Shown here in pieces: positions 19,233-59,131 of a DNA stretch of 64,000 nucleotides; position 1 is the first letter of the stretch, and every line of letters starts with the position of its first letter. A model generated the notes under the pieces. That model was given only the letters and a program-made list of their open reading frames with translations. It was not told the origin of the DNA and searched no databases. Source of the stretch: a virus; the IMG/VR virus record IMGVR_UViG_3300017769_000001, positions 1 to 64,000 of that record; one strand, given 5' to 3'. The translations under genes were made by a program, and so were the position numbers.

Positions 19233-19308
19233 GTGTCTGTAGCTCAATTGGTAGAGCCTCCCACTCATAATGGGCCGGTTACAGGTTCGAGCCCTGTCGG
19301 ACACACCA
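19233..19308 (+). tRNA. tRNA-CAT (Met or lysidine-modified Ile2)
   Basis: cloverleaf, CT-CAT-AA loop, CCA end. Confidence 0.9.
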
Positions 19309-19314
19309 CTTTAA

Positions 19315-19392
19315 GGGCGCGTAGCTCAGTTGGAACAGAGCAGAGGGCTTCTACCCCTCGGGTCGCAGGTTCGAGTCCTGCCGCGTCTGCCA
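19315..19392 (+). tRNA. tRNA-Arg(TCT)
   Basis: cloverleaf, GAGGG-CTTCTAC-CCCTC, CCA end. Confidence 0.92.
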
Positions 19393-19413
19393 AACAAACT
19401 CGTGAGGTGCAAT

Positions 19414-19899
19414 ATGCAAGTAATCAAGGATCTGGTGAGTTGGAATTGGGGAGACCCTATCACACGGTCGATGATCGACTATTACGATGCTCTTTTGACA
19501 TTCGGCGGTAGTGTGGTCATCATCTCCGCTGCTGTGTGGGTATTGGCTAAAATTCATGCCTACATCATGGATTGTGAGACGGTATACCCGTTCAGCGCCA
19601 AGGAGAGGTACAATTCCAAATGGAACAAAATTCGCATTGGAAATTGCTTTCTCGACCATTCCTGTGTCGGGGTGTTCGGAACACTATTTGTAGGTTCTGT
19701 GTTTTTCTTTTGTATTATGGCGTGGGAAACCGTGTTGACGGTTTCGGTAATTTACGGCTTAATACGCACTGCTCGCGGAGTAGTTCGTTTGAAGAAAGCA
19801 CTGAACAAGCATGTCGAAGATAAGATTGCCCATCCTGCCGAGCCAGAGCCGCCATGTGGCGATCTTCCGACGCAGACTAGGATGTCGGTAATTGATTAA
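19414..19899 (+). CDS. membrane protein
   Basis: GAGGTG RBS; hydrophobic segments. Confidence 0.65.
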   Translation: MQVIKDLVSWNWGDPITRSMIDYYDALLTFGGSVVIISAAVWVLAKIHAYIMDCETVYPFSAKERYNSKWNKIRIGNCFLDHSCVGVFGTLFVGSVFFFCIMAWETVLTVSVIYGLIRTARGVVRLKKALNKHVEDKIAHPAEPEPPCGDLPTQTRMSVID

Positions 19900-19976
19900 G
19901 CGGGTGTAGGCGAATTGGCATAGCCACCAGTTTTAAGCATTGGTGTTTGTGGGTTCGAGTCCCACCACCCGTACCA
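19900..19976 (+). tRNA. tRNA-Leu(TAA), short variable loop
   Basis: cloverleaf, TT-TAA-GC loop, CCA end. Confidence 0.9.
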
Positions 19977-52637: not shown

Positions 52638-52683
52638 AAAAAAATCCCCTTTAAAATCCTAATATCGGATTCTAAAGGGGATT
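52638..52683 (-). terminator. intrinsic terminator closing the tRNA array; a sigma70 promoter (TTGACA-17-TAGAAT, 52669..52697) overlaps its 5' arm
   Basis: AATCCCCTTTAGAATCC/GGATTTTAAAGGGGATT stem plus T run. Confidence 0.8.
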
Positions 52684-52702
52684 GCAGTAGATGTCAATAC
52701 GA

Positions 52703-54141: not shown

Positions 54142-54243
54142 ATGCCCTTACAGGGTACGCCTGCCCGATTCACGAGAGTCACATGGCGCGCTTTCCATGC
54201 TTCGGCGGTTGTTTTGTTTCCGCCACGCACCCTGTAAGGACAC
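54142..54243 (-). ncRNA. four-way-junction RNA with ~19-bp closing stem
   Basis: GTGTCCTTACAGGGTGCGT/GCGTACCCTGTAAGGGCAT plus three hairpins. Confidence 0.55.
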
Positions 54244-54250
54244 TTTAAAT

Positions 54251-54344
54251 TGGTGGGGCCGGTTGGAATCGAACCAACGTTGTGTCATTGTGCCGGTTTT
54301 ACAGACCGGAGAGGAACATACACCCAGCGTCCTCAAACGTCCCC
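54251..54344 (-). tRNA. tRNA-Tyr(GTA), atypical D arm
   Basis: CCGGT-CTGTAAA-ACCGG, T arm, CCA end. Confidence 0.8.
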
Positions 54345-54430: not shown

Positions 54431-54560
54431 ATGTTATTTGGCAATCGCTTGCTGGCCTGAATGGGCAGACCTTAACCTGTAGCCGAGTCAGGTTCCCTCT
54501 CCCTTTGCTCAACATCTTTCGGGCTATATTGCAAAGGAACAAGCGATTCCCAAATAACAT
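54431..54560 (-). ncRNA. multibranch RNA with ~21-bp closing stem
   Basis: ATGTTATTTGGGAATCGCTTG/CAAGCGATTGCCAAATAACAT plus three internal hairpins. Confidence 0.55.
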
Positions 54561-55427: not shown

Positions 55428-55560
55428 TGTGACGACTCAAGCTTACAAGGAATCCCGCTTAACGCTTCACACGGCATAAGACTCACACTAACCGTGTACC
55501 CTGCCACACCGGAGTCCCGGCGTTTCTTGATAAGGCATTACTCAAATGAGTGCCGTCACA
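55428..55560 (-). ncRNA. multibranch closed-stem RNA
   Basis: TGTGACGGC/GTCGTCACA ends; ACGCCGG/CCGGTGT and ACACGG/CCGTGT hairpins. Confidence 0.5.
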
Positions 55561-55563
55561 AAA

Positions 55564-55639
55564 TGGTGCTAGGATCTGGATTCGAACCAGAGACCAATCG
55601 CTTATCAAGCGAACGTTCTACCAACTGAACTATCCTAGC
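55564..55639 (-). tRNA. tRNA-Ile(GAT)
   Basis: cloverleaf, CCA end. Confidence 0.92.
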
Positions 55640-55856
55640 GCAAACGTTTGTCGTTAACACGAACAAAATCAAAAACCAATCGATGTAGTGATGTAAGTTC
55701 TTCTTCACTCATTTCTTTCTTACGACCGCACCGCTCACAAACTTTGTATTTCGTAACTCTCAGTAGAGACCGATACGGGTGACTGGGGTCGATCCGAAGC
55801 TTTTTATACTTATGGAATCCAACCACACACTTAAACGGTTTCATTTCTAACACCAT
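55635..55856 (-). CDS. small Zn-finger-like phage protein
   Basis: C..GFHKY...CERCG. Confidence 0.6.
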   Translation of the reverse strand: MVLEMKPFKCVVGFHKYKKLRIDPSHPYRSLLRVTKYKVCERCGRKKEMSEEELTSLHRLVFDFVRVNDKRLR

Positions 55857-56124
55857 CTACTTCGTCGATATACCGCTGTGGTACTTTCTGACCAGAACAA
55901 AACTGGGTCGAAATCTCTGACTTGGAGTTCACATAAACATACCCACGTTCAATAACTCCGACTTCCTCGTTATAACGGTCGCGTACCAGTGCGATGTCTT
56001 TCCGATGATAATCCTTCTCTTCCATCAGAGCTTCTGAATAACTGTCGACTTTGTAGGTGTCTTGAATATCACCATGTTCGTCCACCTGCTCGACAACCCA
56101 TTCATAGGAAACTTTGTTTTTCAT
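55831..56124 (-). CDS. hypothetical protein
   Basis: GGAG RBS, own promoter upstream. Confidence 0.65.
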   Translation of the reverse strand: MKNKVSYEWVVEQVDEHGDIQDTYKVDSYSEALMEEKDYHRKDIALVRDRYNEEVGVIERGYVYVNSKSEISTQFCSGQKVPQRYIDEVDGVRNETV

Positions 56125-56154
56125 GACATCTCCCAGAAGTTCTAGTGAGATTGA

Positions 56155-56183
56155 ATTATTTCACAATAGAGTTTCGATGTCAA
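56155..56183 (-). promoter_or_regulatory. internal sigma70-type promoter
   Basis: TTGACA-17-AATAAT. Confidence 0.6.
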
Positions 56184-56192
56184 CAAGAATTT

Positions 56193-56269
56193 TGGTCGGA
56201 GTAGTAGGACTCGAACCTACGACCCTCTGCTCCCAAAGCAGATGCGCTACCAGACTGCGCTATACTCCG
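56193..56269 (-). tRNA. tRNA-Pro(TGG)
   Basis: canonical cloverleaf, CCA end. Confidence 0.95.
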
Positions 56270-56273
56270 ATGT

Positions 56274-56353
56274 TGGCACCCCCGGTAGGAATCGAACCCA
56301 CATGTGTCCAGTTAGCCTTTCTACTGGTTCGTAGCCAGAGGGCATACAGGGGT
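56274..56353 (-). tRNA. tRNA-Arg(ACG)-like, lacking a D arm
   Basis: acceptor ACCCCTG/CGGGGGT, CTGG-CTACGAA-CCAG, T arm, GCCA end. Confidence 0.7.
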
Positions 56354-56359
56354 ATTAAA

Positions 56360-56435
56360 TGGTGGAACGACAGGGACTCGAACCCTGAACCTGAGCCTTG
56401 CAAAGACCCTGCTCTCCCAGTTGAGCTATCATCCC
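56360..56435 (-). tRNA. tRNA-Ala(TGC)
   Basis: cloverleaf with G3:U70, CCA end. Confidence 0.93.
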
Positions 56436-56539
56436 GAGTATACATTGATCCTGCCTCTATGGCAATCCAAGCGATTCGTATAGGTCAGTGCCAACCAACC
56501 ACAACACACGCCCAGTAAAGGCAGGATCAATGTATACTT
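56436..56539 (-). ncRNA. RNA with 21-bp closing stem
   Basis: AAGTATACATTGATCCTGCCT/AGGCAGGATCAATGTATACTC inverted repeat filling the inter-tRNA gap. Confidence 0.5.
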
Positions 56540-56543
56540 AAAT

Positions 56544-56642
56544 TGGCGGAAGGACAGGGATTCGAACCCTGACGTCTACTCACGTAAACCCTCGGTTTTC
56601 AAGACCGCTGCCGCTACCCAGACTCTTTCGGCTTACCCTTCC
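56544..56642 (-). tRNA. tRNA-Ser(TGA), enlarged D loop
   Basis: CT-TGA-AA loop, long variable arm, G73, CCA end. Confidence 0.88.
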
Positions 56643-56651
56643 AAAATTAAA

Positions 56652-56757
56652 TGCAGGTTGGTGTCTCAAACCAAGAAATCCCGAACCCTGAACTGAGACA
56701 TTGGCAGTCTGTCGCGAATCGACACTTCCGCTCAGTTCTTTGAGGATTTTACCTGCA
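56652..56757 (-). ncRNA. multibranch closed-stem RNA
   Basis: TGCAGGT/ACCTGCA ends; TGTCG/CGACA and TGTCTCA/TGAGACA arms. Confidence 0.45.
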
Positions 56758-56760
56758 ATG

Positions 56761-56832
56761 TGGCACTCTGTCAAGGATTCGAACCCTGCACGGCGAAGTT
56801 TGGAGCCTCGCCTGCCCCCAAGAGCCCAGAGC
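56761..56832 (-). tRNA. tRNA-Trp(CCA), atypical geometry
   Basis: GGCGAGG-CTCCAAA-CTTCGCC, T arm, GCCA end. Confidence 0.78.
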
Positions 56833-56838
56833 ATAAAT

Positions 56839-56914
56839 TGGCTGGCGAAACAGGGCTCGAACCTGTGACCGTCTCCTTAACAGGGAGCTGCTCTACCAAC
56901 TGAGCTACACGCCA
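56839..56914 (-). tRNA. tRNA-Asn(GTT)
   Basis: cloverleaf, G73, CCA end. Confidence 0.9.
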
Positions 56915-56925
56915 ATAAACTTACC

Positions 56926-57038
56926 TTTGAATAGAGATCTGATCGGACTTGGGTATCTAATCGACTCCGACCCCTCAAGTCTTCAACTCGATATTGGTCA
57001 GATCCCTAATCAAAACCCATCAGTTTACGCCTGATGGG
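56926..57038 (-). ncRNA. long irregular hairpin plus short hairpin
   Basis: TTTGATTAGGGATCTGA/TCAGATCTCTATTCAAA, inner GACTTG/CAAGTC; CCCATCAG/CTGATGGG. Confidence 0.45.
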
Positions 57039-57045
57039 ACGCGTT

Positions 57046-57121
57046 TGGTGGAACCGGCTGGGATCGAACCAGCGACCACAAGATCTTCAATCAAGCACTC
57101 TACCAGCTGAGTTACAGTTCC
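57046..57121 (-). tRNA. tRNA-Phe(GAA)
   Basis: cloverleaf, two U:U mismatches in the anticodon stem, CCA end. Confidence 0.85.
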
Positions 57122-57125
57122 ATGA

Positions 57126-57200
57126 TGGTATCCCTTACCGGATTCGAACCGGTGTTACCGCCTTGAAAGGGCAGCGTCCTAACCGCTAGACGAAAGGGAC
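57126..57200 (-). tRNA. tRNA-Glu(TTC)
   Basis: cloverleaf, CCA end. Confidence 0.93.
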
Positions 57201-57205
57201 ATAAT

Positions 57206-57282
57206 TGGCGACTCCTACCGGGATCGAACCGGTGACCTTCCGCGTGACAGGCGGGTGCTCTAACCATCTGAGCTAAGGAGCC
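57206..57282 (-). tRNA. tRNA-Asp(GTC)
   Basis: cloverleaf, G73, CCA end. Confidence 0.93.
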
Positions 57283-57306
57283 ATTGTATAGTGATAGAAG
57301 TTTGAA

Positions 57307-57335
57307 ATTCTACCATGATCCTATACAAAGATCAA
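57307..57335 (-). promoter_or_regulatory. possible internal sigma70-type promoter
   Basis: TTGATC-17-TAGAAT with extended -10 TG. Confidence 0.5.
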
Positions 57336-57351
57336 ACTTAATTTCTTATTT

Positions 57352-57440
57352 TGGCGGTGAGTGTAGGACTCGAACCTACGCACCCCTTTCGGGATGTACG
57401 ACTTAGCAGGCCGCTGCATTACCAACTCTGCCAACTCACC
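57352..57440 (-). tRNA. tRNA-Ser(GCT)
   Basis: cloverleaf with long variable arm, CCA end. Confidence 0.93.
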
Positions 57441-57446
57441 TAAAAA

Positions 57447-57523
57447 TGGTACGGGAGGTGAGACTCGAACTCACAAACTTCGGAACCTAAATCCGACGGC
57501 TATGCCAATTCGCCTACTCCCGC
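57447..57523 (-). tRNA. tRNA-Leu(TAG), short variable loop
   Basis: TCGGA-TTTAGGT-TCCGA, CCA end. Confidence 0.9.
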
Positions 57524-57524
57524 A

Positions 57525-57600
57525 TGGTTGTGGGTGCTGGACTCGAACCAGCGACCTATAGGATATGAACCTACTGCTCTACCAACTGAGCTAACCCACA
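57525..57600 (-). tRNA. tRNA-CAT (Met or Ile2)
   Basis: cloverleaf, TT-CAT-AT loop, CCA end. Confidence 0.88.
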
Positions 57601-57614
57601 AAACTTTCCAACAA

Positions 57615-57625
57615 TGTTAAAGAAC
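57615..57625 (-). promoter_or_regulatory. rrn-type boxA antitermination element
   Basis: GTTCTTTAACA versus boxA consensus GCTCTTTAACA. Confidence 0.6.
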
Positions 57626-57646
57626 GCGACACTAATGGTCAAAAAT

Positions 57647-57721
57647 TGGAGCGGGTAATCGGTCTCGAACCGATCCACGGAGGGTGGAAGCCTCCCGCTC
57701 TACCAACTGAGCTATACCCGC
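57647..57721 (-). tRNA. tRNA-Gly(TCC)
   Basis: cloverleaf, U73, CCA end. Confidence 0.92.
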
Positions 57722-57740: not shown

Positions 57741-57818
57741 AAAACGAGAAAACCCTTCTTGTTTGAAGGGCTTTCAGAAAACTTACGTGTGTTTACTCTA
57801 CGTACGCTAGAAGCCCTT
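57741..57818 (-). promoter_or_regulatory. transcription attenuator (mutually exclusive antiterminator and terminator)
   Basis: AAGCCCTT can pair with upstream AAGGGCTT or with downstream AAGGGTTT, which is followed by TCTCGTTTT. Confidence 0.65.
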
Positions 57819-57923
57819 AATCTCTACCTCGCGATCACTCCAAATATTAAAGCCGAGCGACATCGCGGGATTATGATATCCCTTTGCCGGTTGTGCTTTT
57901 GTGTTGGAGTTCATAGTAAACAT
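57807..57923 (-). CDS. leader peptide of the tRNA array (38 aa, absent from the ORF track)
   Basis: MFTMNSNTKAQPAKGYHNPAMSLGFNIWSDREVEIKGF; last codons form the antiterminator 5' strand. Confidence 0.6.
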   Translation of the reverse strand: MFTMNSNTKAQPAKGYHNPAMSLGFNIWSDREVEIKGF

Positions 57924-57992
57924 ACTTAAATTCTCTGAGTATTCCCTTAGTTAGTGTTGAAAAACTATCAAAATTTAGACCTACTGAAAAAT

Positions 57993-58080
57993 TTTAGATA
58001 CCTCTGACTAGGAGTCGAACCTAGATCGAAAACGCGAAGCGAATTCCGGCATACCGTTAACCGCACCAAAGGCATCTAAA
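57993..58080 (-). ncRNA. tRNA-like RNA without a normal anticodon loop
   Basis: 14-bp closing stem, D-like arm, T arm CTAGG-TTCGACT-CCTAG. Confidence 0.55.
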
Positions 58081-58244: not shown

Positions 58245-59131
58245 TTGGGTTTCGCATTCAACGTAACGTACAAGTAGCCGGTATTACTCGTTACTATCAA
58301 ATGCAGCTCGTTCCTATTGTACTACTTTCTTGGTAATCCACCCACAGCTTCCCAAGTTTCTTTGCTCCCCGGCCTTTTCACGCTCCGCTTTCACGGCTAC
58401 GGTCGAATCTCCGGTTTAGATCCCAATCCAACCCTTTCCGGGTTTGGCTCTAAGGGATCGTTCTGCCTATTCTCTCTATTTAGATAGCCACAATTGGCTC
58501 TGTCATCTATGAATGGAGACATCAGGCTTCGCTCCAATTTTATGGTGACGGGTTCTTCCTGCCTAAACCGTGTGATTAGCACGTTCACCATCTTCGTTAG
58601 ATCCGCCTCTCAAGGTCGCAGACCAGTAACCAAACACGCTACTCTAATAGGCTTCAATCATCCGGATGGCCGTCCGTCGATTTTCCACCTGTCTGAGCCG
58701 AACATACCCCGATATGCCAACCCAGACCCCTTTCGGGATGAAACGACCCTTTCAGGCCGATCCATTAAACGCTTTCGAGTATACGCTTGTAACGAGTATT
58801 CGGGGATCACAATATTCATCCCTACGATGATAGCATGATCGAATGTTAGTCATACTTCCCAGAACCGTTACCTTAACTGGGTAAGGAAGTCCAGAAACCA
58901 ACTTGGCGGTTGGCTCTTAAACACCCTTTATACTGGATCGGCTTTGTGCGCCAACACAACTACCAATCCGACACCGTTGTTGGGAGTAACTCAGCCAACG
59001 ACTTCTAACCTCCCTAGTGCCCTCACTATAAACAACCGCCTAAGCAATCATTTATGAAGCCCGTATGTAAGACTCCAATTTTACCTCCGGTGATCTCGGA
59101 GGGTTTCACCGCCGGGTTCCCCCGACTGCGT
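58245..59131 (-). ncRNA. candidate giant structured ncRNA (GOLLD/ROOL-like size and context)
   Basis: ~890 nt with no credible gene, own sigma70 promoter, many GAAA-capped hairpins, abuts the tRNA array. Confidence 0.6.

Follow-up and report, generated by a model that had tools for sequence, protein, structure and literature searches.

A candidate leader-peptide attenuator in front of a phage tRNA array

The tRNA array and the region upstream of it

The locus described here belongs to a 148,739-bp phage genome with terminal repeats, held in IMG/VR, whose first 64 kb form the window (the whole 64,000-nucleotide stretch that was analysed). The phage is a marine, distantly rV5-like one, and its conserved 671-aa protein shares no more than 51-56% identity with those of rV5-like, Klebsiella, Serratia and Vibrio myophages. 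On the minus strand, two promoters are followed in order by an 887-nt RNA, two tRNA-like elements, a 277-nt spacer and tRNA-Gly with the remainder of a tRNA array (Table 1). The first 14 tRNAs are, in transcription order, Gly, Met, Leu(UAG), Ser(GCU), Asp, Glu, Phe, Asn, Trp, Ser(UGA), Ala, Arg(ACG), Pro and Ile; the genes after the 14th specify His, Val, Lys, Met, Tyr, Gln, Cys and Thr. A preliminary description of this DNA had taken tRNA-Gly to be the first tRNA. It is the first canonical, CCA-encoding one, but the two tRNA-like elements upstream of it lack CCA. Three non-canonical CCA-ending tRNA genes are missed by ARAGORN at default settings (56544-56629, 56274-56353 and 54251-54344, all on the minus strand); the first of these, Ser(UGA), has two acceptor mismatches, and the last is a type-II tRNA with the loop CUGUAAA (Tyr-GUA).

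Table 1. Positions of the leader elements and of the neighbouring features in the window
Feature	Position	Strand	Description
Near-consensus sigma-70 promoters	59277 and 59165	-	from a consensus scan; 1.2-1.3 kb upstream of the leader
ORF-free 887-nt RNA	58245-59131	-	GNRA tetraloop-rich; directly after a TTGACA-17-TAGAAT promoter
tRNA-like element 1	58243-58085	-	without CCA; good acceptor and T arms; insertion of ~60-100 nt at the anticodon-region position
tRNA-like element 2	58073-57999	-	without CCA; good acceptor and T arms; poor anticodon arm, U33 absent
AU-rich linker	57939-57998	-	mostly unpaired; from tRNA-like element 2 to the leader; weak promoter-like site only
Spacer with leader ORF and terminator	57998-57722	-	277 nt
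H5, 5' arm of closing helix	57915-57938	-	holds RBS AGAGAA, AUG (57923-57921) and codons 2-3
Leader ORF	57807-57923	-	MFTMNSNTKAQPAKGYHNPAMSLGFNIWSDREVEIKGF + UAG; 38 codons
Internal rod-like hairpin in ORF	57837-57910	-	3' arm overlaps roster codons
Roster	57828-57869	-	PAMSLGFNIWSDRE; codons 19-32, P A M S L G F N I W S D R E; one codon per each of the first 14 tRNA genes
A, 5' arm of candidate antiterminator	57811-57818	-	AAGGGCUU; codons 36-38; near-copy of terminator 3' arm
H3, 3' arm of closing helix	57776-57800	-	just after the stop codon; within the antiterminator loop
B	57766-57773	-	AAGCCCUU; pairs with A in the antiterminator; also part of the terminator 5' arm
Intrinsic-terminator-like hairpin and tail	57741-57775	-	11 bp including 1 G-U; loop AAACAA; tail UCGUUUU
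tRNA-Gly(UCC)	57647-57721	-	begins at 57721; first canonical (CCA-encoding) tRNA of the array
14 roster-listed tRNA genes	55564-57721	-	including Ser(UGA) 56629-56544 and D-armless Arg(ACG) 56353-56274
Second terminator-like hairpin	57016-57038	-	CCCATCAGGCGTAAACTGATGGG + TTTTGATT; right after tRNA-Phe; no leader
Closed-stem inter-tRNA spacers (n = 6)	54142-54243, 54431-54560, 55428-55560, 56436-56539, 56652-56757, 56926-57014	-	terminal helices of 7-23 bp; z -2.5 to -7.8

The leader does not stand at the head of its transcription unit; the 887-nt RNA and the two tRNA-like elements precede it in the same unit. Our promoter scan found no strong promoter directly upstream of the leader ORF, the near-consensus ones being the two at the start of the unit, while the site in the linker (TCGACT-16-TAAAAT, 58018-57991) matches the consensus at 9 of 12 positions. 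The 887-nt RNA has a strong predicted fold (MFE -302 kcal/mol, z = -4.8) and matches no Rfam family, GOLLD and ROOL included. The tRNA-like elements between this RNA and the leader are possible processing handles for RNase P/Z. At the other end of the array lies a consensus promoter, TTGACA-17-TAGAAT (52643-52697, minus strand), whose -10 element falls within the 5' arm of a 17-bp hairpin that is followed by a T-run and an ATG. Between tRNA-Gly and tRNA-Met, a boxA-like motif (CGTTCTTTAACA, 57615-57626, minus strand) overlaps a weak promoter-like site, TTGACC-17-TAACAT; such motifs are no more frequent in the window than expected by chance (4 observed with at most one mismatch versus 1.6 expected).

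Six other inter-tRNA spacers of the array are predicted to fold into closed-stem structures, several with stems that would be long enough to serve as RNase III substrates. The leader spacer folds in the same manner, with its ends paired in a long helix and a fold that beats those of its shuffles.

Only identical copies of the locus were found (L055 and L056). DNA searches with the leader and the 1.6-kb unit, run against 50,697 phage genomes, returned matches to tRNA-Gly alone or nothing, tblastn of the leader peptide gave no match at E <= 10, and the exact terminator pattern had 0 matches in IMG/VR. Likewise, neither nhmmer of the unit against all retrieved loci nor blastn against the phage's own genome detected relatives or paralogues. 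The neighbouring 110-aa protein is an orphan, and the only other contigs that carry it are 100% identical. The 671-aa neighbour recurs at 53 viral and 80 metagenome loci, in no case with more than 56% identity or with a syntenic tRNA array; Vibrio phage 1.170.O, for example, has no tRNA array at the locus of its homologue. In distant relatives, two tmRNA genes lie near the 671-aa protein homologue (L013:7504-7892 and L017:21610-21954), one of them standard and the other flagged with an asterisk by ARAGORN and probably of the permuted type.

A reading frame that matches 14 tRNA genes

Every amino acid but Cys occurs in the leader ORF, 19 types in all, encoded by 28 different codons, and the ORF ends in AAG GGC TTC TAG, all as first described. 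From this diversity it had been proposed that the ORF serves an attenuator sensitive to every amino acid. On its own, amino-acid diversity is weak evidence, with 19 of 20 amino acids being reached by 1.9% of short frames, by 2.6% of windows from real proteins and by 9% of stop-free shuffles of the leader ORF itself. One part of the proposal that stands is the tie between the ORF and the array, and the sharper pattern behind it is a roster of 14 codons for 14 tRNAs: codons 19-32 specify the exact multiset of amino acids carried by the first 14 tRNAs, two Ser included.

This match was assessed with a statistic devised after part of the pattern had been seen, under which shuffles of the tRNA order gave a prefix match of at least 14 in 2 of 100,000 cases (P = 2e-5). 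When any contiguous run of tRNAs was allowed, 2 of 20,000 shuffles matched, and shuffling the leader peptide produced the roster match in none of 20,000. In a six-frame scan of the 148.7-kb genome (173,950 windows), the roster was the sole window of its kind, the runner-up reaching k = 6. It remained the sole match in the genome with two of the genes treated as wildcards, namely Ser(UGA) and Arg(ACG); the anticodon of the latter was assigned by eye, ARAGORN calling the gene only at relaxed settings and with an odd anticodon. Perfect-roster scans of seven other loci with at least four tRNAs found chance-level k = 4 matches only, and the tRNA cluster at 19233-19976 on the plus strand has no leader.

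The codons themselves also suit the array. The two Ser codons of the roster, UCG and AGU, fit the two Ser tRNAs (UGA and GCU), while CGC fits Arg-ACG and CUC fits Leu-UAG, rather than the Arg-UCU and Leu-UAA of the other tRNA cluster. Decodability of the codons by the phage tRNA set has no power as a test, the set being complete, and the order of residues in the peptide is not correlated with that of the tRNAs (Spearman -0.12, P = 0.48). Taken together, the roster observations provide strong evidence that the leader ORF is functional and linked to the array. As a separate observation, where phage U34 tRNAs serve a four-codon box, the roster takes the C-ending codons CCC, CUC and GGC. Such codons are read least well by U34 and would be read best by host G34 tRNAs; their use may make the sensor extra sensitive, or may tune it to host tRNAs.

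The leader ORF has never been annotated as a gene. No Shine-Dalgarno core lies upstream of it, and its ribosome-binding site AGAGAA (57935-57930) is weak, as previously cautioned. The accessibility of its start region is 0.227, the 1.6th percentile among 127 long ORFs of the phage, making it more paired than 98% of them; in the folding model, the start is nevertheless accessible in nascent RNA until H3 is made. A phmmer search of the leader peptide against 1.84 billion proteins found no small-protein homologue. Its matches, to a GFNIWS-like motif that is repeated in two giant beta-sandwich proteins, were judged spurious.

Two other accounts of the ORF must be weighed against these data. The first takes it for an ordinary small phage protein gene without a regulatory role, whose mRNA ends at the terminator and whose translation is limited by 5'/3' fold-back. 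The composite codon and amino-acid score of the leader ORF is indeed protein-like, in the top 2-3% of nulls, and small protein genes do occur among the tRNAs in other parts of the array. Those genes, however, carry a clear Shine-Dalgarno sequence, unlike the leader ORF, which moreover has no homologues and departs from gene-like usage in its choice among synonymous codons (P = 0.006). An ordinary protein gene also does not predict a one-to-one roster, and we regard this account as very improbable.

The second account sees a non-coding, closed-stem spacer RNA followed by a leaky terminator at which the strongly promoted unit of the 887-nt RNA would end, and attributes the ORF and its match to the tRNAs to coincidence. 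The missing Shine-Dalgarno sequence, the buried AUG, the synonymous codon usage and the lack of homologues and of a gene call all suit this account. It is further favoured by the closed-stem fold that encloses the whole ORF (z = -4.3) and by the distance of the strong promoters, which lie 1.2-1.3 kb upstream, beyond the structured RNA and both tRNA-like elements. Against it, a coincidence of ~2e-5 to 1e-4 is needed that is unique in the genome and has its place precisely in the 277-nt spacer that precedes the first tRNA, together with the pairing of P = 0.017 described below. A fortuitous ORF within a structured spacer was our initial reading; the roster statistics demoted it to a minor rival, and we now consider it quite unlikely.

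Competing RNA structures and a predicted switch

The preliminary description had also pointed to a pairing between the last codons of the ORF and the RNA downstream. The two segments, AAGGGCUU (A) and AAGCCCUU (B), are perfectly complementary over 8 bp, and the hairpin that they close has an inner stem, UACGU/ACGUA. B is shared with the terminator-like hairpin GAAAGCCCUUC-AAACAA-GAAGGGUUUUC (57775-57748, -15.4 kcal/mol), which was likewise confirmed and was also recovered by a consensus scan. The ORF contains a near-copy of the terminator 3' arm (UUAAGGGCUUCU versus AGAAGGGUUUUC), and an 8-nt complement to the terminator 5' arm would arise by chance within the spacer with P = 0.017. The gap between terminator and tRNA-Gly is 19 nt, leaving no room for a promoter.

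A third pairing brings together the two ends of the leader. By inspection, the 24-nt arms H5 and H3 form 20 Watson-Crick and 2 G-U pairs with 2 mismatches, and the predicted fold keeps 20-22 bp. This helix closes a 163-nt domain that encloses the ORF (-46.5 kcal/mol, z = -4.34), and the minus strand of the leader folds slightly better than the plus strand. H3 sits in the antiterminator loop, and H5:H3 and A:B are mutually exclusive. Modelling suggests that H5:H3 buries the weak ribosome-binding site and the AUG, and would keep the terminator locked on as long as the start region is unoccupied. Searches of the leader region against Rfam (E <= 1 and E <= 10) found no T-box or other cis-regulator except an rnk leader at E = 6.1, a chance-level match driven by the terminator.

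Folding with and without ribosome-blocked regions, a check of the kind first suggested for this locus, gave a divided answer. The antiterminator appears in the nascent-RNA model only if H5 is occupied, but under equilibrium conditions all modelled states have the terminator formed to 96% or more; there, forcing A:B costs 11.4 kcal/mol and the pairing is never favoured. In RNA ending just after B, with H5 free (no ribosome, or a ribosome at codons 7-38), H5:H3 forms with a probability of ~0.87 and excludes A:B, the probability of the antiterminator being 0.000 with a ribosome at codons 7-38. With H5 blocked, the antiterminator reaches a probability of 0.80-0.89 in nascent RNA for A-site codons 2-32 and at most 0.02 from codon 33 to the stop, a boundary between codons 32 and 33 that depends on the assumed ribosome footprint. 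The claim that stalling at any codon frees the antiterminator is not supported as it stands: in the models it holds for A-site codons up to 32 while H5 is blocked, and fails when H5 is free and H5:H3 re-forms. Even with queued ribosomes, only ~40% of stall positions yield a substantial antiterminator probability. The stop codon lies, as proposed, where a terminating ribosome covers the antiterminator arm. The end of the roster coincides exactly with the masking boundary, such that the last roster codon is the last stall position that leaves the antiterminator free.

The best explanation for these features, which we hold with moderate confidence, is a leader-peptide (ribosome-mediated) transcription attenuator in front of the phage tRNA genes. 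We lean slightly towards a more specific form of it, in which the ORF is a checklist with a codon for each of 14 tRNAs, and the speed of the ribosome sets tRNA transcription through a switch between lock, antiterminator and terminator. Fast decoding of the roster codons would bring the lead ribosome to codons 33-38 or to the stop, where it covers arm A; the terminator would then form, and transcription would end ~20 nt before tRNA-Gly. A slow roster codon, its tRNA being scarce, uncharged or cleaved, would make the ribosome lag. A could then pair with B once B emerges, blocking the terminator and letting RNA polymerase enter the tRNA genes.

In this attenuator, the H5:H3 helix (20-22 bp) would act as a third element, an anti-antiterminator, a role that we infer from the folding models. 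Whenever the ribosome-binding site, the AUG and the first six codons are free of ribosomes, H5:H3 would capture H3, bury the start and make termination the default. Read-through would therefore need ongoing initiation combined with slow elongation. After the decision has been taken, the RNA would relax to the closed-stem form, as in the six other spacers of the array.

An alternative that keeps the translated roster gives the switch another output than transcription termination. The ORF would still report tRNA supply, with ribosome occupancy deciding whether the H5:H3 stalk forms and thereby the processing of the polycistronic RNA (e.g. by RNase III-type cleavage of a ~22-bp helix) or the stability of the released leader RNA; the hairpin and its U-tract would be a constitutive, partly leaky terminator or a 3' stabiliser. 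The roster statistics, which tie the ORF to the tRNAs, also support this alternative, and H5:H3 dominates all thermodynamic models. The six closed-stem spacers (closing helices of 7-23 bp, z -2.5 to -7.8) are consistent with it too, as is the second terminator-like hairpin, at 57038-57016 before tRNA-Asn and tRNA-Trp. No ORF and no promoter-like site lies between that hairpin and the two tRNAs, so both also depend on read-through, and read-through of such hairpins must occur anyway. An output other than termination, however, does not account for the 8-bp A:B pairing that sits exactly under the last codons (P = 0.017), and leaves the coincidence between the end of the roster and the masking boundary unexplained. 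We think this alternative unlikely.

The reach of the proposed attenuator along the array would be partial. Internal promoters had been raised as a possible bypass at ~57320 and ~56170, and promoter-like sites are present there, at 57335 and 56183. In all, the 14-tRNA stretch contains near-consensus sites at 56774 and 56183 and weaker ones at 57642, 57335 and 56465. The switch would therefore gate part of the array only, adding to the expression of distal tRNAs and not fully controlling it. No transcription boundary was seen after the 14th tRNA.

If the attenuator is as proposed, a shortage of tRNAs at the ribosomes probably leads the phage to raise its tRNA production. The leader would then sense tRNA supply in a feedback loop, and might also help the phage to counter host defences that cleave tRNAs. 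Phage tRNA arrays are thought to offset the loss of host tRNAs during infection, including loss through cleavage by anticodon nucleases (PMC10264068, PMC11464382, PMC11555353). A leader ORF that lists its own tRNAs would sense decoding capacity directly and would carry trp-type attenuation beyond amino-acid supply to the supply of tRNAs. An exact list of 14 codons for 14 genes also offers a clean experimental handle, as well as a search rule by which leaders of this kind may be sought in further phages.

Comparison with known systems

The setting of the leader recalls the large ornate phage RNAs GOLLD and ROOL, which adjoin tRNA islands (PMC12286853). Here too, a strongly structured phage RNA of ~0.9 kb lies directly upstream, beside a tRNA array. 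The 887-nt RNA nevertheless matches neither family in Rfam, and we treat it as context and not as part of the switch. T-box riboswitches share with the proposed attenuator the sensing of tRNA status and the control of a choice between terminator and antiterminator. They differ in binding uncharged tRNA directly, with no need for translation.

The modelled sequence of structures has counterparts in the antibiotic-responsive leader-peptide attenuators found by Term-seq and in the anti-antiterminator logic of pyr-type systems. As in these, a general slowing of the leader ribosome would turn the terminator off, and three mutually exclusive structures (anti-antiterminator, antiterminator and terminator) are involved. 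Their signal is a drug-stalled ribosome or a bound protein, whereas the signal proposed here is the speed of decoding along a list of codons together with the occupancy of the start site by ribosomes.

The proposed mechanism follows the logic of multivalent leader-peptide attenuators, known from enterobacterial operons for amino acids such as ilvGMEDA and thr; trpL, hisL, leuL and pheL are further leaders of these operons. In common with them, the terminator-like hairpin here comes after a short ORF, its 5' arm can pair instead with a segment that a ribosome at the stop codon would mask, the putative regulatory codons lie just upstream of that segment, and RNA structure would impose termination on an untranslated leader. 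By analogy, the logic of these attenuators would here be applied to tRNA genes and not to biosynthetic enzymes. Further differences are that the regulatory codons would be 14 different ones, one per downstream tRNA, in place of a run for 1-3 amino acids, that the lock formed without translation pairs the ribosome-binding site and AUG with a segment after the stop codon, where theirs pairs the regulatory codons, and that the ribosome-binding site is weak.

To judge by a full-text literature search, which found no description of a tRNA-matched leader controlling tRNA genes, leader-peptide attenuation of such genes has not yet been published. A comparable arrangement can nonetheless be recognised in the unrelated Caulobacter phage phiCbK, where annotated rho-independent terminators stand before three tRNA blocks and short ORFs enriched in the amino acids of the block precede two of the three. 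One of these ORFs encodes 45 aa, of which 23 are Ser, Leu, Pro or Lys, and precedes tRNAs for Pro (two), Lys (two), Leu (three) and Ser (two); the other, of 32 aa and containing ...RQFVRQIQVVRNI..., precedes Phe, Val, Ile, Ile, Val, Gln and Gln. The present leader differs from these in lineage, in having no dedicated strong promoter, in its long-range helix that would sequester the Shine-Dalgarno region, and in matching an exact one-to-one list of 14 genes where phiCbK shows enrichment. In both phages, the amino acids of a tRNA block that lies behind a terminator are over-represented in a mini-ORF, and phiCbK thus provides a partial, independent check that the layout of leader, terminator and tRNA genes recurs.
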